Assembly (NCBI GenBank): GCA_029935695.1
Contig: JAOZJV010000001.1
Span: 1-28,768, forward strand
Direction: 5' to 3'
DNA: 28,768 nucleotides
Source: Candidatus Krumholzibacteriia bacterium
Lineage (GTDB): Bacteria > Krumholzibacteriota > Krumholzibacteriia > LZORAL124-64-63
In this document: positions 1 to 7,074 of the stretch, piece after piece
Layout of the letters: each line of letters opens with the position of its first letter
How positions within the stretch are numbered: position 1 is the stretch's first letter
The notes under the pieces: model-generated
What the model saw: the letters and a program-made list of their open reading frames with translations, nothing else
Database searches by the model: none
Told to the model about the DNA's origin: nothing
Made by a program: the position numbers and the translations under genes

Positions 1-246
1 GTTGCCAGAATAAATCTGGGTCATAGCCCCTTCAGCTTCTGGATCAAAGGCCAGGGCTGAATCCTGCCAGGAAACAAAAACATCCACCTCGGCGGTGAAA
101 GTATTGCTGATTTCATCAATCCTGGTGATATCAACCAGGTAAAAACCAACAGCCACTTCACGCTGCTCGGAAGATCCGGATATTTCCGAAGCAATAGCGG
201 CACTGCAGATGAAAAGCAGCAACATCAATAATACAACTTGGCGCAT
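1..246 (-). CDS. Prokaryotic pentameric ligand-gated ion channel (GLIC/ELIC-like), N-terminal part only; runs off the window
   Basis: Manual translation from ATG at 246 (GAGGA upstream): MRQVVLLMLLLFICSAAIA-SEISGSSEQREVAVGFYLVDITRIDEISNTFTAEVDVFVSWQDSALAFDPEAEGAMTQIYSGN. Signal peptide, then the pLGIC beta1-beta2 pattern V.VG.Y..D...IDE...TF......W.D..LAF. Open to base 1. Not in the ORF track. Confidence 0.82.
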   Translation of the reverse strand, partial: MRQVVLLMLLLFICSAAIASEISGSSEQREVAVGFYLVDITRIDEISNTFTAEVDVFVSWQDSALAFDPEAEGAMTQIYSGN

Positions 247-299
247 CGGTACTATCCTCAAGGTCTGGTGGACTGTTCAGGGTTTGCGCCAATATTACA

Positions 300-3200
300 T
301 CAATCATCGTCGATAATCACGCCATTGTTCTCATATGGATTGCCCAGCACGGCATTGGTTGGGTCGGCCGACAACTGCAGAATGAATGCTTCCTGATTTT
401 CGTGCACGCCGTCTTCCACCGTGATAATGGTGATGGTGGTGTCCACTGTGCCTGGCATCATGGAAAGCAGGGCATTGCTCGGCGGAATAAAATCAGATAT
501 GCCGTTGGTGGACCCCTGGTCATATCCCAGACGGAAGAACACCGGCACAATAGTCTGCTCACTCAAATGGATAGTGAAATGCATGTTGTCGCCCTCGGTG
601 GCGGTGGCGCCTGAGGGGATGGTCAATTCCGGCTGGTCGGCATCCTCAATATAGCCGGTGGCAACAATGGGCATGCCCAGTACCGCGTTGACCGGAGTGT
701 GGAGCATGATGGTGAAATCTTCCAGGGTCCACTCGGGACCACCGTCGGCGATGGCCGGAACCGAAACCGTGAACGTGGTGGCTCCGGGCGGCACCACAAA
801 AGGACCGCCAAAACTATCATCGTAGTCGATACCGGCGCGCACAGCCGTGCCGTCAGTGAAGTCCACGCTGAAATTCACTTCAACTTCACTGGTCCAGCTC
901 AGGTTCAGGATGAAATCAACATTTTCGCCCTCAAGGCCGGTGGCGTCGCCATCCCAACTCAACTCAGGCGGATCCATGTCGGTGATGGTGCCGATGCCAC
1001 TGTTGTCCGCGCTGACGGTGGCATTGGTCGGAGAAACAACAGTGATGACAAAGATTTCGATGGCCGCGTCGCCCCCATCGCCGGCAAAGATTTCCACCGG
1101 AACAGTGGTGGCCGTTTCGCCTGCAAGGAAGGTGTAAGGCCCAGTGGCCGAAATATCGAAGTCGTCTCCCATGGTGGCCGAATCGTTGGCAAACTGCAGA
1201 TTGAACTGAATGTCCGCGGTGCTGGGTGCATCCAGGAAAACATCGAAAATTGCAATCTGGCCTTCATCAGCGGCAGCAGACCCGATGGAAAGTTCAGGAG
1301 CATCGACAATGGTGGCTTCCAGGTCCACCACTCCGAGGGCCACATTGGCGTTGGAGATATTGGCCCGAATAATTTCGTCCACTTCATCAGGCAACTGGTC
1401 ATCCAGGAAAGGCACGCTGAAAGAGACTTCGGTGGTCATGGCAGGGATCGTGTGCGTGCCCACACCACCAAAGGAATAGTCGACACCCTCGCCCTGGGAT
1501 GTACCCAGCAGAAGATCCAGATCGTAGGTTGTATCATCCTGCCGCGGAGTTGTCAGCAGCACTGTGAATTCCCACACCGATCCTTCATTCAATGTTGTGG
1601 CCACGGCCTGCAGATTCAGTGAAGGGTACTCGTCATCCGTCAGGGTACAGAACGCGTCGTCGGTGCCGCAGCTGCCTCCGGCGTTGACGAAGTTGGCTAA
1701 TGTCAGCACGAAAGTTTCGTTATCATCATCGTGAATATCATCCAGCAACGTGACCGGAATTTGCAAACTGCCAGACCCGGCAGCGATGGTTACGGTTTCC
1801 AGAACGGGGGTGTAATCAACATCCGCCTCTGCTGTCTGGTCTGCTGTTTCCACCTGGAAAGTAATATCGGCGGAGCTTATCACCGGAGCCAAAGCGGCAT
1901 CCCGCAGTTCGACGGTGAAGTTCACCAGACCATCAGACTCGATGGCTTCAACATCGGACACCAGCAGGCAGGGCTGGTCATCATCAATCAAAGTGCAGGT
2001 GGCGATGAGTCCCACAAAACAGGAATGGTCTGCTGCGGTAATTTCAAGCTGGAAATATTCATTAAGGGATTCGGCATCCACATCGTCAATCAACGGCACC
2101 ATGAACTCAGCGCTGGTTGAGTTGGCCGGTATGGTCCAGGTCTGGTTGGTGATGGTCGTGAAGTCGGATCCGCCCTGAGCGTCCACCTGATCGCCCGGCG
2201 GATTGACACCGTCGCCATCGCGGGTGCTGACCGTCAAATTCATGGGGTCAATGCAGGGATTCAGCAGCTCGATGCGGAAAACAGCGTTGCCTTCATTTTC
2301 ATTAAACACAACATCCGCCAGGGTTACTGTCTGGAGTTCATCATTGAGAATTGTGCAAACTGTCGGCGGGTCACTCCAGGCCGCGTTGGCGCTGATGGCG
2401 CTGAGGCTGCCTGTGAAAGTTTCATCCTCTTCAAAATATACATCGGCGTTCAGAACCACAGGAATCACACGTTGGGTGTCCCCTGCTTCCATCACGAAGC
2501 TTTGATTCAGGGCCACATAATCTTCGCCCGCCAAAGCGGTGCCGTCGGCAGTGCTGAAGGTGAAACTGATGGGCACTGTTTCGGCAAAAGGAATACTGAC
2601 GACGAAATTAGCCGCCCCCGCGTCTTCATTCACATTGGTGACACTGAGGGTCATGGGGGTCAAATCGTTATCGACCACGTTGAGAGTCACGCGGTCGTCT
2701 TCGCCGATGATCACATGCTGCAGAGGGGTGATCAGCATTTCGAAATATTCGGTCGGTTCTATTTCTGCATCATCCAGAACATGAATGGTCGTTGTCTGTG
2801 AAAGAGGGTAGCTGGGATAGAAAATAAAATCCCGGCTGACGGATACAAAATCGCTTCCACCGGTGGCGGTGCCATCGACAGAGGTGAGGCGAACCTGCAC
2901 GGTTTCCATGCTGGGCCTGTCCAGGCTGATCTCAACCTGGACCATGGTGGACAGATCATGTTCATAGAGCGTGGGATCAGTTGTCAGATGCAGCCGGGCG
3001 ATGGGTGGCAGCGTGAAATCATACGTGGTGACCACCAGAGAGGGAATTTCCAGCTCGGGGCCGTAGTTGGGATCGTCTGATGCGGCGCCATGTTCAATGG
3101 TCACAACCAAATCATCATTGTCAATTTCATCCAGTTCAATCCACAGGATAATCTCCTGCAGCTGGTTCCAGTTGGTGGCGTCGAAAGTCAGGAATTCCGG

Positions 3201-3794
3201 TTCCACATGCAAGCTGGGTTCAGCCGGAACCACCGCTGTTGAGACTGTCACCGAACTGATCGGTTCACTGCTCAAGCGCACACGGTAGGTTTCACGCACG
3301 ATGCCAGCTTCAGATTCAACCAATGTCAGGCTGGTCTCGGTAATCAATACTCCGATGGTATCATTGTCGGCGATCATCACCGGCACTGCGCCTTCGCCGG
3401 TTTGGTTGGCGTAGGGAGGGTCCAGAGATTCGCTCAGAATGGTGATAGCATCGTCATGAGGACCTTCGTGAATCTCATCGTCCACTGCAGACACGTTGAT
3501 GGTCTGGGGCGCGGCCCAGCTGTCATCCACCGGGACAAAAGTCAGCAGATCGGGTGAAAGCAGGACCTGGTCGTTGGCGCTGAAAATTCGCACCCGCACC
3601 GTATCGGTGGGCACCATGCCCAAACTGACGGCAAAGGACCCCGAAGATGCACCTTCGCCAATTCGCAGGGTGTCGGTGGCCACGGTGATGAGTTTCAAAT
3701 TCGGCTGGAAGGTATCCCAGTCGTTGTCCCGACGGTCACAACCGAGACCCGCAAGAATCAACACACACACCAGAAGCAGGATTCCCTTGCGCAT
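300..3794 (-). CDS. Lipoprotein with 10 tandem Calx-beta-like (Ca2+-binding Ig-like) domains; putative surface adhesin
   Basis: ATG at 3794 overlaps the upstream TGA (TGATG). Lipobox LAGLG-C19. Ten ~110-aa acidic repeats with E..G...F.V.L, T.DGTA..G.D(F/Y), ..DD...E..E.F and I.D.D motifs. Confidence 0.88.
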   Translation of the reverse strand: MRKGILLLVCVLILAGLGCDRRDNDWDTFQPNLKLITVATDTLRIGEGASSGSFAVSLGMVPTDTVRVRIFSANDQVLLSPDLLTFVPVDDSWAAPQTINVSAVDDEIHEGPHDDAITILSESLDPPYANQTGEGAVPVMIADNDTIGVLITETSLTLVESEAGIVRETYRVRLSSEPISSVTVSTAVVPAEPSLHVEPEFLTFDATNWNQLQEIILWIELDEIDNDDLVVTIEHGAASDDPNYGPELEIPSLVVTTYDFTLPPIARLHLTTDPTLYEHDLSTMVQVEISLDRPSMETVQVRLTSVDGTATGGSDFVSVSRDFIFYPSYPLSQTTTIHVLDDAEIEPTEYFEMLITPLQHVIIGEDDRVTLNVVDNDLTPMTLSVTNVNEDAGAANFVVSIPFAETVPISFTFSTADGTALAGEDYVALNQSFVMEAGDTQRVIPVVLNADVYFEEDETFTGSLSAISANAAWSDPPTVCTILNDELQTVTLADVVFNENEGNAVFRIELLNPCIDPMNLTVSTRDGDGVNPPGDQVDAQGGSDFTTITNQTWTIPANSTSAEFMVPLIDDVDAESLNEYFQLEITAADHSCFVGLIATCTLIDDDQPCLLVSDVEAIESDGLVNFTVELRDAALAPVISSADITFQVETADQTAEADVDYTPVLETVTIAAGSGSLQIPVTLLDDIHDDDNETFVLTLANFVNAGGSCGTDDAFCTLTDDEYPSLNLQAVATTLNEGSVWEFTVLLTTPRQDDTTYDLDLLLGTSQGEGVDYSFGGVGTHTIPAMTTEVSFSVPFLDDQLPDEVDEIIRANISNANVALGVVDLEATIVDAPELSIGSAAADEGQIAIFDVFLDAPSTADIQFNLQFANDSATMGDDFDISATGPYTFLAGETATTVPVEIFAGDGGDAAIEIFVITVVSPTNATVSADNSGIGTITDMDPPELSWDGDATGLEGENVDFILNLSWTSEVEVNFSVDFTDGTAVRAGIDYDDSFGGPFVVPPGATTFTVSVPAIADGGPEWTLEDFTIMLHTPVNAVLGMPIVATGYIEDADQPELTIPSGATATEGDNMHFTIHLSEQTIVPVFFRLGYDQGSTNGISDFIPPSNALLSMMPGTVDTTITIITVEDGVHENQEAFILQLSADPTNAVLGNPYENNGVIIDDD

Positions 3795-4879
3795 CAAAAC
3801 ACCACCAGACCAATGGAAGCCGAAGGAGCGACTCCGAACCAGTAATCATCAGGACCATTGTCCGCGAAGTAATACATCAATTCCAGCTGACCACTGACAC
3901 CAACATCCACTCGTCCCACTTCGAAGATGCGCTGCAAAGCCGACGCCCGGCAGCCCAATCCTTTGCGCCGATAATCACGACCCACATATTTGAGCATCTG
4001 GGTGCCGTCATACAAACCGCCAAAGGCCACGGTCACGCCCAAACTCCAGTGAGACCCGAAGGATTGGCTCATTTGCCCCATTCCATAGGTGAGTTTCACC
4101 CGGTGGAAAGTCACATCACTGCGGCGGCCCGGAGTGATGATTTCCCAGGTTTCATAGCGATTCTGCTGGTAACCAAAAGTGACTTCCTGGAAGAAAATCC
4201 AATGATCCCTGGGCGGCAGATGATCGGGATAGCCAAAGCGCAGGGTTCCATAAATTCCGATACCGGGGCGCACATCATCAACTCCACCGATGGCGGTGTT
4301 GTCCGTCTGAAATTTTCCACCAAGCATGAACGGCACCTGAAAACCAGCCACCAGTTCAGGATAATCTGGAGTTGAGTCCGGTCCCGCGTACTTGGGAAGA
4401 TTTTTGCGGAGGGCCCATTCGGGATTAAGGGTAGTGTCCAGACGGAATATCATGCCGCCATCTTCATTACCCTGGAAACGGGGATAGACCAGGAATTTGT
4501 CGGTTTCAACGAAACGATCGAAGGCAGGATCATATTCCCGGGGCACATAGACCCAATTGTTCATTTCGAAGTGCACGGCCACGTTGAGGTCGTAAATTCG
4601 CACGGTGTAAGCAGTGCCGGGTTGCAGCTGAGAGCTGCGCATAATAAAATGGCCGGGGAAGTCGTTTTCGATGTCCGCGTACAGACATTCACCATCAGGG
4701 GTGCAAAATTCCACTTCACCGATGGGAAAGAAATTGCCGTCTGAGTCCTGAACCGTGTATTGGATGAATCGGTGCACTCGGTCCTGGGCCTGAGCCGGCT
4801 TTGGAGCCAGCCATGGGGCCAGAACAGCGAGCATGAACACCAGTGGAATCCATGATCTTGGTTGTGAACTCAGGTGCAT
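3794..4879 (-). CDS. Exported protein: small N-terminal beta domain plus probable C-terminal outer-membrane beta-barrel
   Basis: ATG at 4879 after AAAGGA. Signal peptide ending AQA. C-terminal half has about 8 amphipathic strands (GIGIYGTLRFGY, QEVTFGYQQ, WSLGVTVAFGG, GVSGQLELMYYF, SASIGLVVF) and a terminal Phe. No family recognised. Confidence 0.6.
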   Translation of the reverse strand: MHLSSQPRSWIPLVFMLAVLAPWLAPKPAQAQDRVHRFIQYTVQDSDGNFFPIGEVEFCTPDGECLYADIENDFPGHFIMRSSQLQPGTAYTVRIYDLNVAVHFEMNNWVYVPREYDPAFDRFVETDKFLVYPRFQGNEDGGMIFRLDTTLNPEWALRKNLPKYAGPDSTPDYPELVAGFQVPFMLGGKFQTDNTAIGGVDDVRPGIGIYGTLRFGYPDHLPPRDHWIFFQEVTFGYQQNRYETWEIITPGRRSDVTFHRVKLTYGMGQMSQSFGSHWSLGVTVAFGGLYDGTQMLKYVGRDYRRKGLGCRASALQRIFEVGRVDVGVSGQLELMYYFADNGPDDYWFGVAPSASIGLVVF

Positions 4880-5126
4880 GTAACTTCCTTTCACCGCAAC
4901 CAGTTGGATTGCTGGTGAAATCTTGTAACAGCGAATATTCTGCGCTCCCGGTATGGGACTTTCGGCCTTTTGGGAAGCATCAATTGAGTGAATGACGGAA
5001 GCCTGAACTGGGCCTTATTGCATCAAAAAACAGGACCAGATGGTAATCTTTCTAACCCTAACTCCCGCACTACCATCAGGTTTTTGCAAGGGTCGTTCCC
5101 GGATGGGCAATTTTGCAACCAGCATG

Positions 5127-5164
5127 AAAAAAGGCGGCCTCTCCTGATGGAGAAGCCGCCAAAA
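5127..5164 (-). terminator. Rho-independent terminator after the DUF362-like gene
   Basis: Minus strand GGCGGCTTCTCC-ATCA-GGAGAGGCCGCC followed by TTTTTT, about 20 nt after the stop. Confidence 0.8.
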
Positions 5165-5181
5165 TCGATAATTTTTCAGCC

Positions 5182-7074
5182 TCACCGAACCAGGGACATC
5201 TTACCTGTTTCAAGAGTTGTCCCTTGCCGAATACTGTATGAATAGATTCCCGAGGCGAGACTCCGGCCACCATCATCCTGACCAAGCCAGGGAATCTCGT
5301 GTTCGCCGGCTGCCAGGTGTTCATTCAAAACCGTTGCCACACGGGCGCCGGCCACATCGTAGATCACTAACTCCACCAGCCCCTGCTCCTGCAACTCAAA
5401 GCAAATGGATGTGCGTGGATTGAAAGGATTCGGGTAGCAATAGGAAGCAAATTTCAGATTTGACCCGGGTACACCGCTCAGCTGCGGCAGGCGCACCAAC
5501 TCGATTCCCTCACCGATCCCCAGATTGCGACTGTATTGCATATTGACCGGATCGTTCCAATGCTCGTGAACACCCAGGCTGGACAAGGATTGCACGTCGC
5601 CTTCATGGTCCGGATCGTAAAAGGTGCCTGAAGGCGGGTTGGCTGCCAGAGCCGCCTCGTGCAGGTAATCATCAGTGCCTTCCTGCTGGGGATACAGCCG
5701 GGGATCTCCCTCAAGTTGCATAATATCCAAACACACCGATTCAATGGCCACCGGATCCAGAGAGGCGAAGAGGCTGTTGGTCCAGTCGTTTTCGAAAGGA
5801 TCGTTGGCCCAGCGCAAGGGCTCATGATCGTCAGGATGACAGCCAGCGTAAAGACCATCAATTAAGTACAGCAGGGTTTTCCCACCCAACTGACTGTGGC
5901 CCATCAGATCGATAATGGCACGGTAATTTTCTGAATCCGGTGTCTGGTAGGCCAAACTCTCATGCAACTCCATAAACCCGTCTTCACCAGGATATCTGAT
6001 TAGCGACCCATAGTGGTTTTTCGCGCAAAAGGTAACCCCCGCGCCCATGTGACTTTTGAAGTTGGCCAGGTTGATGAAGTAAGTGGCCTGAGCGTATGAT
6101 TCCAGAATGTAGTCCTGCTGAATCCCAGTTGGGTGGTTGCTCCAATAAAGGGAGACGGTCGAGTTTTGTGCCGCAACACGAGGATTTTCTGGCGTACCGC
6201 CCTGATGGTCCAGGTAATGTACATCAGGAAATTCTCCAGCCAGCATGGCATGATACTGGTTGGGAAAAAGGGACAGGGGATCACCGATGGTTATGTCTGC
6301 CTGCTGCACACCTGCGAAATGCACCAGCTGCCGCAGCAAGGCAAGCATCACCTGGGGAGATGTGTTCATGTAGTCCATGTTGGAGACGAGATCATAAGAC
6401 TCGGCGTCGGTCCCGCCCCACCCCGGCAAATAATGACATCCGACAAGATTGACTTTGATCATTATTTTCTGCCCTGAAGTGTAGCCGACATCACCATTGC
6501 CATGTTCAATGTTGAAATACCGAAACATGGCATCCCAGGCGGAGAATTCATTGTCCTGTCCGGCAAGAGCCAGAATATTCGAGGATAGCATTTGCCCGAC
6601 AACTGTCTCGCTAGTGTGCTCGGGTTCCCACCAATGACCATCTCCAGGTCCATCCCAGTCTGTGGCCGCAGGTTCGTGGTACCAGACAACGCGTCCCGGA
6701 TGAATGCCTTTGGCCTCACCAATCGGTTCATTTCCAATTTTCAGTGAAGCCAAAGCAGGAGAGCTGGGCTGACCAAGCCAGGTGGCAGCTCCAAAAACCA
6801 GAGCCAGGGACAGGCAAACCCACCCTGCTGCCCATCGATTCTCATTAAAACAGGTTTTTCCACGACGCAGCAGATATCCGGAAGTGAAGACACCAATGAC
6901 CCAAAGCACAAAGGCACTGGCCAGAGGAAAAGCTGCCCGCTGGCATGGATAAGCAGCACGGCTGGGCTTGGGAATAACCCGTATCAAGAACCACAACAAG
7001 GCTAAAAAGCCCGCCAGAAATGGAAATACTCGTGTACCAAAATGTCGTAGGTTTTCAGGATAACTCAGCCGCAT
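5182..7074 (-). CDS. DUF362-domain protein with N-terminal hydrophobic leader and C-terminal FlgD-Ig/Por-type sorting-like domain
   Basis: GEAKGIHPGRVVW, KIMIKVNL, INLANFKSH..AGVTFCAKNHYG and DPVAIE motifs typical of DUF362. C-terminus YPNPFNPRTSICFEL...IYDVAG...SGIYSY...KMSLVR. Confidence 0.75.
   Translation of the reverse strand: MRLSYPENLRHFGTRVFPFLAGFLALLWFLIRVIPKPSRAAYPCQRAAFPLASAFVLWVIGVFTSGYLLRRGKTCFNENRWAAGWVCLSLALVFGAATWLGQPSSPALASLKIGNEPIGEAKGIHPGRVVWYHEPAATDWDGPGDGHWWEPEHTSETVVGQMLSSNILALAGQDNEFSAWDAMFRYFNIEHGNGDVGYTSGQKIMIKVNLVGCHYLPGWGGTDAESYDLVSNMDYMNTSPQVMLALLRQLVHFAGVQQADITIGDPLSLFPNQYHAMLAGEFPDVHYLDHQGGTPENPRVAAQNSTVSLYWSNHPTGIQQDYILESYAQATYFINLANFKSHMGAGVTFCAKNHYGSLIRYPGEDGFMELHESLAYQTPDSENYRAIIDLMGHSQLGGKTLLYLIDGLYAGCHPDDHEPLRWANDPFENDWTNSLFASLDPVAIESVCLDIMQLEGDPRLYPQQEGTDDYLHEAALAANPPSGTFYDPDHEGDVQSLSSLGVHEHWNDPVNMQYSRNLGIGEGIELVRLPQLSGVPGSNLKFASYCYPNPFNPRTSICFELQEQGLVELVIYDVAGARVATVLNEHLAAGEHEIPWLGQDDGGRSLASGIYSYSIRQGTTLETGKMSLVR

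Follow-up and report, generated by a model that had tools for sequence, protein, structure and literature searches.

In type 9 secretion systems (T9SS), a dedicated barrel gene lies beside the gene of a large, repeat-rich surface protein that is anchored by the PorP/SprF barrel (PMC9143113), and in Slam/type 11 secretion (T11SS) the barrel gene adjoins that of its lipoprotein client, the barrel carrying a periplasmic N-terminal domain and the clients being diverse (PMC5449769, PMC8406197). In Bacteroidota, a short, charged and acid-rich segment directly after the +1 cysteine, the lipoprotein export signal (LES; consensus C-x-K-(D/E)2 or S-D-D-D-D at +2 to +6), is used by many lipoproteins and governs their fate (PMC5080379). 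Outside Proteobacteria and Bacteroidota, little is known of how lipoproteins arrive at the surface and are retained there, and the locus described here offers a compact two-gene case. It occupies positions 1-4879 of a 28,768-nt stretch of DNA from a Candidatus Krumholzibacteriia bacterium (the window), which is the entire contig C352 of a fragmented genome bin (G000; 978 contigs; 94% complete). The real feature of this locus is a new, lineage-restricted cassette of a barrel protein and a tagged lipoprotein, which stands beside an orphan unit composed of a pentameric ligand-gated ion channel (pLGIC) gene and an EEP-family lipoprotein gene. We consider it likely that these are two independent units, the barrel/tagged-lipoprotein cassette and a self-contained pLGIC unit, and not one three-part system.

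The original prediction had described three minus-strand genes in 1-4879, the first two of them joined by a TGATG overlap; all three open reading frames (ORFs) are present, and the overlap of the barrel stop and the Calx start is found as ttTGATGcgc. The features that concern the cassette and its neighbour are as follows:

3794..4879 (read 4879..3794), minus strand: gene of a barrel-like, two-domain outer-membrane protein; 361 aa counted from the ATG, signal peptide at aa 1-35, C-terminus ...LVVF
4774-4400, minus strand: predicted beta-sandwich domain of the barrel protein (aa ~36-160; sandwich at residues 38-151 of the AlphaFold2 (AF2) model)
4354-3797, minus strand: predicted 8-stranded beta-barrel (aa 176-361; DSSP strands at 176-360 of the AF2 model)
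300..3794, minus strand: gene of the Calx-beta lipoprotein; 1164 aa, its start overlapping the barrel stop
3717..3740, minus strand: tag codons, encoding C-D-R-R-D-N-D-W at the mature N-terminus, which immediately follows the lipobox; the motif is common to all lipoproteins downstream of barrel homologues
1..246, minus strand: N-terminus of the pLGIC; first 82 codons, with the signal peptide and beta1-beta2 of the ligand-binding domain (LBD), cut by the contig end

The cassette is defined by two conserved properties, namely the tag at the mature N-terminus of the lipoprotein and the adjacency of the two genes. In the Calx orthologues, C, D and D-N-D-W of the tag are invariant (15/15). When the tag was searched as a degenerate DNA pattern, with the reversed pattern as control and with barrels located by profile hidden Markov model (HMM), the G000 genome yielded a single match, at the Calx lipoprotein gene (control 0). 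Across 91 genomes of the family the pattern yielded 33 matches and the reversed-pattern control 20. Lipoprotein N-termini account for 25 of the 33, and every one of these (25/25) lies just downstream of a barrel-HMM match; seven of the other eight were examined and are ORF-internal, with no preceding signal peptide and lipobox and no barrel nearby. Five barrel loci that were missed by the pattern have close variants of the tag (CDRQDNHW, CDQEDNNW and CDKNDGEL), the last two carrying DUF11-like passengers. A tagged (or close-variant) lipoprotein gene is immediately downstream of the barrel in 30/30 loci examined, a number that excludes two further partial barrel hits, and the coupling of barrel and lipoprotein that had been proposed for the window is thereby upheld. 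On these comparisons, the conserved adjacency and the conserved tag define a two-gene cassette. Barrel HMM matches occur in 27/86 genomes of this family (f1) and in 0/114 genomes of other families in the phylum, and the cassette is found only in one family of Krumholzibacteriota.

The result is a tiny family without a family model, always paired with lipoproteins that share an 8-residue tag and differ in their passengers: ten Calx-beta-like sandwiches in the window, a 387-aa Calx paralogue in G004 (the closest sequenced relative), 13 DUF11 repeats in G023, and DUF11-like repeats in G113 and G190. The 387-aa lipoprotein of G004 belongs to a second cassette of that genome (L028:3156-5447, on G004:C67), in which it follows a barrel paralogue of ~30% identity; it has the tag CDETNSDW (C-D-E-T-N-S-D-W), matches Calx-beta once and likewise ends in ...DDD. 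In G023 (L027:3595-9734, on G023:C66), a barrel homologue is followed by a 1738-aa lipoprotein with the tag CDTEDNDW, which contains the DUF11 repeats and no Calx-beta.

An AF2 model of the barrel protein, built from 27 sequences (pLDDT 84), consists of a beta-sandwich and eight long C-terminal strands. A Foldseek search with this model returned probability 1.0 against OmpX, OmpA, NspA and Ail, and the best target coverage was obtained for these four together with OmpW and PagL (template modelling score by target 0.47-0.63). The eight antiparallel strands of the model and the C-terminal F correspond to the structure of OmpX/OmpA-type barrels. By sequence, a Pfam/NCBIfam search of the 27 homologues assigned no family (nothing at E <=0.01; best OMP_b-brl_2, E 0.11), which places the barrel outside OMP_b-brl, OmpA_membrane and similar families, and the 37 homologues found among 5.8 billion proteins are all annotated as hypothetical. 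The AlphaFold DB clusters that share the layout are 'PEGA/caspase/SH3b domain + OMP barrel' proteins, and an ESM Atlas search with the N-terminal domain gave weak CarboxypepD_reg/PEGA leads only (score 0.83); this domain is probably a periplasmic CarboxypepD_reg/PEGA-like beta-sandwich. Within the alignment, invariant columns make up 10/44 of the predicted extracellular loops versus 10/123 of the strands, and the predicted extracellular loops appear to be conserved at least as well as the strands.

The outer-membrane barrel of the original prediction itself stands, refined to a protein of two domains in which the barrel is small and 8-stranded and not a large pore. Modelled as such, the barrel would be too narrow for a pore, and export through it is unlikely because eight strands leave no lumen through which a client of 1164 aa could pass. 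Hence, of the proposal that the barrel exports or anchors the lipoprotein, regarded there as an adhesin, export is unlikely in view of the eight OmpX/OmpA-like strands, and anchoring is the favoured reading. The same evidence bears on the suggestion that the barrel is a dedicated Slam-like exporter for which C-D-x-x-D-N-x-W serves as secretion signal. A short conserved tag on unrelated passengers, always beside one barrel family, is indeed the pattern of a signal and its machine, Slam genes likewise adjoin lipoprotein substrates (PMC5449769), and barrel oligomers that form a larger pore are still conceivable; however, the model is 8-stranded and closest to pore-less OmpX/OmpA-type barrels, and no match to DUF560 or another translocator family was obtained, so that we regard a dedicated exporter as unlikely.

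Turning to the lipoprotein, Pfam detects Calx-beta (PF03160) at 6e-50 in five stretches, and matches to the NCX1 CBD were found. An AF2 model from 15 orthologues (pLDDT 80) is all-beta and contains about ten tandem sandwiches, of which Pfam sees five. The orthologues are equal in length and align domain for domain, and self-BLAST of the Calx protein revealed no internal repeats at E 1e-3; the Calx domains are therefore old and divergent. The protein is highly acidic (D+E 16.9%, K+R 2.1%) and ends in ...VIIDDD, with invariant acidic clusters at most domain ends, such as D341 D342 E346 E349 and D685-D691 E693, and it may bind Ca2+. Its signal peptide and a lipobox that ends in Cys (MRKGILLLVCVLILAGLG before the Cys, ..AGLG/C; G-C invariant in 15 orthologues) identify it as a predicted lipoprotein, which would be acylated at this residue.

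Together, these features suggest how the cassette (4879..300) may operate. It would be a translationally coupled two-gene unit of the barrel protein and the C-D-x-x-D-N-x-W lipoprotein, in which the tag precedes some ten acidic Calx-beta-like sandwiches; these would make up a rod about 40 nm long, which Ca2+ probably stiffens. The barrel protein would be the cognate partner of the lipoprotein and would recognise the tag at its N-terminus, because the tag is short and fixed, the passengers are interchangeable and the barrel neighbour is obligate and translationally coupled. Docking or sorting of the lipoprotein at the outer membrane would then fall to the barrel protein, with the cell surface as the likeliest place, and it would serve as an anchor and not as a translocation pore; surface docking or sorting is favoured over a pore because of the eight strands, their length and the conserved extracellular loops. 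We propose tentatively, at somewhat less than even confidence, that the cassette is an undescribed lineage-specific system for lipoprotein sorting and display at the outer membrane, in which the two-domain barrel reads the tag and places interchangeable repeat passengers (Calx-beta, DUF11) on the surface. A co-fold of barrel aa 36-361 with the first 342 mature lipoprotein residues, run with own alignments and no controls, scored 0.00 and carries no weight either way.

The lipoprotein could instead be periplasmic, with its anchor in the outer membrane's inner leaflet, and bound to the beta-sandwich of the barrel protein, where it might act as an envelope scaffold or a buffer of divalent cations. 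Barrels with an even number of strands are expected to have their N-terminal domain in the periplasm, and here this domain is well conserved (22/125 columns invariant) and the lipoprotein extremely acidic, all of which would suit such an arrangement. On the other hand, ten tandem sandwiches of about 40 nm, as the model suggests, are longer than the usual periplasmic width, surface proteins are where Calx-beta and DUF11 repeats typically occur, the extracellular barrel loops are unusually conserved, and the acidic N-terminus resembles the surface-export signals of related Bacteroidota (PMC5080379). Hence, a periplasmic location seems quite improbable to us, and docking at the cell surface is the reading we retain.

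The question then arises as to whether the channel is a third component, since the original prediction had joined barrel, Calx lipoprotein and pLGIC into one co-expressed module. A survey in which 61 related genomes were searched with each protein lends this no support: the barrel was found in 12, the pLGIC in eight and both in three (G000, G002 and G026), and the genes are adjacent only in G000, so that the barrel-Calx-pLGIC order is not conserved. Sister lineages keep the pair without the channel. In G004, whose Calx protein is 84% identical, barrel, Calx and EEP genes are followed by the same genes as on contig C202, which holds the remainder of the G000 channel, and no channel is present; likewise, the P0010, P0009 and P0007 lineages (barrel 78-80% identical) have barrel-Calx-EEP and no channel. 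A PF02931 search of five same-genus genomes that carry the pair gave no match, and the same model finds the channel in G000. Furthermore, channel orthologues at 31-63% identity, as well as the G002 copy (75%, on another contig), have unrelated neighbours; those of the distant orthologues include an M16 peptidase with a PIN/MazE pair, a HAD hydrolase with a histidine kinase, a glycine-zipper protein, an esterase and a Ser/Thr kinase. By locus, the position of the pLGIC relative to the pair is as follows:

pLGIC adjacent to the pair: G000, L053
pLGIC near-adjacent: L055
pLGIC absent: G004, L049, L050, P0007, G001, G003, G005, G007
pLGIC found elsewhere: G002, G026, G006, G024, G030, G057, G059

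A maximum-likelihood tree of the Calx proteins interleaves pLGIC-positive (G000, L053, L055) and pLGIC-negative (G004, L049, L050) lineages, with G000, L053 and G004 in one fully supported group. This interleaving would be due to deletion of the channel, as the junction in G004 shows: at L017:4640-4706, the channel leader, together with the initial ORF bases ATGCGCCA, runs directly into the start of the EEP gene, and no pLGIC was found anywhere in the G004 genome. To judge from its sequence, this junction is a deletion scar of the channel. The idea that the pLGIC is unique to G000 was dropped after the neighbourhoods of P0043, P0044 and P0046 had been found; that of P0044 (a 74% identical channel, L054) reads x-323aa-pLGIC-EEP, on contigs that end before any Calx gene could appear. 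Because the channel is missing from sister lineages and has unrelated neighbours elsewhere, it presents itself as a dispensable, relocatable gene, and its place beside the pair as shallow, genus-level inherited synteny and not a partnership.

The spacer between the Calx gene and the channel measures 53 nt (Calx stop 302-300, pLGIC ATG 246-244, gap 299..247), as had been stated, and a terminator scan of 247-299 found none, again in agreement with the original prediction. This spacer has the features of a leader that belongs to the channel:

247..299, minus strand: pLGIC leader; extended -10-like TGTAATATT at 299-291, GGCGCA at 290-285, Shine-Dalgarno-like GAGGA at 259-255

Copies were aligned from the window (247-299, minus strand), L053:4117-4169, L054:1695-1747 and, in G004, L017:4652-4705. 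The block (A)TGCTAT(A)ATTGGCGCAAA...CTGAGGA...ATGCGCCA stands 5' of the channel in G000, L053 and L054 and survives in G004; in L054 it accompanies the channel although the upstream gene differs. The -10-like element is a perfect TGnTATAAT in G004 and TGTAATATT in G000. Between lineages the leader is 63-72% identical, whereas the flanking genes reach only 41-54% at their fourfold-degenerate sites. GGCGCA has its complement in UGCGCC (245-240), which overlaps the pLGIC start codon, and the pairing could mask that codon; in RNAalifold the 6-7-bp GGCGCA/UGCGCC stem is invariant and hence has no covariation support. No Rfam family was found for the leader, and an Rfam scan of 1-5400 returned nothing relevant, the sole match being a chance IRES_Bip (E 0.42). 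Its conservation argues for a promoter-like element and 5' untranslated region of the channel's own, which would drive pLGIC-EEP.

The second unit would then comprise a minimal pLGIC gene with its own promoter-like leader, followed by the gene of an EEP-family (Exo_endo_phos) lipoprotein. The latter begins 12 nt after the pLGIC (G000:C202:8469-9326, L037; L045:10132-10989) and encodes the signal ..LVMQG/C. Within the genus, the gene downstream of Calx is consistently this one, channel or no channel. The EEP gene was considered as a universal third partner of the pair and rejected, since outside the genus it no longer follows the Calx gene; downstream of the pair in further relatives lie a Na/H exchanger, an S9 peptidase, fumarase or unannotated genes.

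Several points weigh against this account of a cassette beside an independent channel. In L053, which holds an 81% identical channel (P0043), the genes run barrel-Calx-pLGIC-EEP on the same strand and in the same order as in G000, and the locus of P0046 (73% identical channel, L055/L056) reads barrel-Calx-MBOAT-325aa-pLGIC-EEP. When the minus strand of the spacer was scanned for a sigma-70 consensus, which may not fit this phylum, no site was found, the promoter-like element staying under the threshold; and as the Calx gene and the channel are not separated by a terminator, read-through co-transcription is possible. As to the cassette itself, we infer the physical binding of barrel and lipoprotein, and it is a loose resemblance to the LES together with the length of the rod that suggests surface exposure.

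Some of these points speak for a single co-expressed envelope module of barrel, Calx lipoprotein and pLGIC, in which ionic or Ca2+ signalling would be tied to the adhesin. The three genes share a strand, the gaps are short and the Calx-pLGIC spacer lacks a terminator; the order recurs in L053 and, with two intervening genes, in L055/L056; all the products are envelope proteins; and some bacterial pLGICs are Ca2+-modulated, DeCLIC being an example (PMC9897478). Such a module is nevertheless very improbable, given that sister lineages keep the pair without the channel and G004 bears its deletion scar, that channel orthologues elsewhere have unrelated neighbours, that the channel has its own conserved leader, that the MBOAT and 325-aa genes intervene in L055, and that genome-level co-occurrence is absent among the 61 genomes. 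The intervening genes of L055 (4439-6900) encode an MBOAT acyltransferase and a 325-aa protein without a family match. Two independent units remain the reading that we prefer.

The channel itself could be completed. A Neur_chan_LBD search of the whole G000 genome traced the remainder to the end of contig C202 (G000:C202:9339-10130, reading 10130-9339), which overlaps the end of C352 in frame by 17 nt. Two independent assemblies, L045 (a 34.7-kb NCBI contig) and L046 (ENA), bridge the C352/C202 junction base for base, at 98.3-99.9% identity. The assembly break, which lies inside the pLGIC (window 1-20; G000:C202:10110-10131), coincides with a short repeat, CCCAGATTTAT, that occurs twice in 60 nt, and at each contig end the last base differs from that in the bridging assemblies. 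The complete protein, P0041 (339 aa; L045:9100-10119), has a signal peptide, the LBD, the FPFD Pro-loop and M1-M4; the rest of the ORF thus contains the transmembrane helices on which the channel assignment of the original prediction depended.

Assignment to the pLGIC family is supported by several searches. Neur_chan_LBD (PF02931) scored 1.3e-6 on the 87-aa fragment and 5e-10 on the other half, both above the cut-off, and the membrane domain (PF02932) reached 28.3 bits versus a cut-off of 28.1. The NCBIfam model LGIC_1 matched P0041 at 2.8e-39 with 135 bits, which is under its curated cut-off of 500 and makes the subfamily assignment loose. P0041 aligns over its full length, through M1-M4, to GLIC and ELIC chains (E 1e-26 to 1e-36). 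Its Pro-loop reads YRNFPFDTQ, with FPFD in all the commonest variants among 93 homologues, and the 9' Leu of M2 is found in 92/93. With an LBD, M1-M4 with 9' Leu and FPFD, P0041 has what defines a pLGIC and is a predicted channel. The M2 entrance is G-R-R-A-G at -2' to 2', with no -1' Glu; the Arg-Arg at -1'/0' is kept in 87-90 of the 93 homologues, and the transmembrane domain (TMD) scores best against a chimera carrying the glycine-receptor TMD. Because of this entrance and this score, P0041 appears to be an inner-membrane channel that is probably anion-selective, and the Arg-Arg pore entrance probably marks a clade of anion-selective bacterial pLGICs.

On its upstream side, the cassette is delimited by one further feature:

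5133..5160, minus strand: intrinsic-terminator-like hairpin; 12-bp stem with 9 G-C pairs and a T run, ending the upstream gene

This predicted hairpin, upstream of the barrel gene, marks a new transcription unit before that gene. The neighbouring segment 5165-8468 (3.3 kb) contains two T9SS-C-terminal-domain (CTD)-type genes, of 630 aa (DUF362) and 355 aa. It is missing from L046, another assembly of the same species (96.6-98.5% identity in the shared flanks), in which a TetR gene lies immediately 5' of the barrel gene, and one breakpoint of the segment abuts the terminator at 5160.

A literature search on the genomic context of prokaryotic pLGICs gave nothing useful. A channel-plus-adhesin module, if true, would have set a bacterial pLGIC in a physiological context, which is rare; with the three-part context removed by the genome comparisons, the channel stays an orphan. 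Compared with the GLIC/ELIC-type minimal pLGICs, P0041 is alike in size (339 aa), signal peptide, LBD, FPFD, M1-M4 and 9' Leu, with no extra N-terminal domain. GLIC and ELIC are cation-selective, with Glu at -1'/-2', whereas P0041 has Gly-Arg-Arg at -2', -1' and 0'; apart from this Arg-Arg entrance, it appears to be an ordinary minimal prokaryotic pLGIC.

The barrel protein shares with OmpX, OmpA, NspA and Ail the fold of residues 176-361, the long strands that would protrude beyond the membrane and the C-terminal aromatic residue. It differs from them in its additional N-terminal beta-sandwich, in having no sequence-family match and in its obligate lipoprotein gene partner. The tag loosely resembles the LES in its position and charge, yet C-D-R-R-D-N-D-W is basic and then acidic, with no match to the LES consensus, and unlike the LES, C-D-x-x-D-N-x-W is limited to one occurrence per genome and to the neighbourhood of the barrel gene. 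PorP/SprF systems and the hosts of the cassette belong to the same superphylum (Fibrobacterota-Chlorobiota-Bacteroidota, FCB); however, the type-B cargo of PorP/SprF has a C-terminal sorting domain, whereas the lipoprotein described here has an N-terminal lipobox and tag and no CTD, and the 27 barrel homologues have no PorP_SprF match in Pfam/NCBIfam and so fall outside that family. Slam barrels, for their part, are larger, proteobacterial and of the DUF560 family, and are combined with a TPR-type periplasmic domain, whereas the barrel of the cassette has eight predicted strands, no DUF560 match and a beta-sandwich as its N-terminal domain, and its recognition element would lie beside the lipid anchor of the client. 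A sorting and display system of this kind, if true, would be a functional counterpart of Slam or PorP/SprF that is built from different parts.

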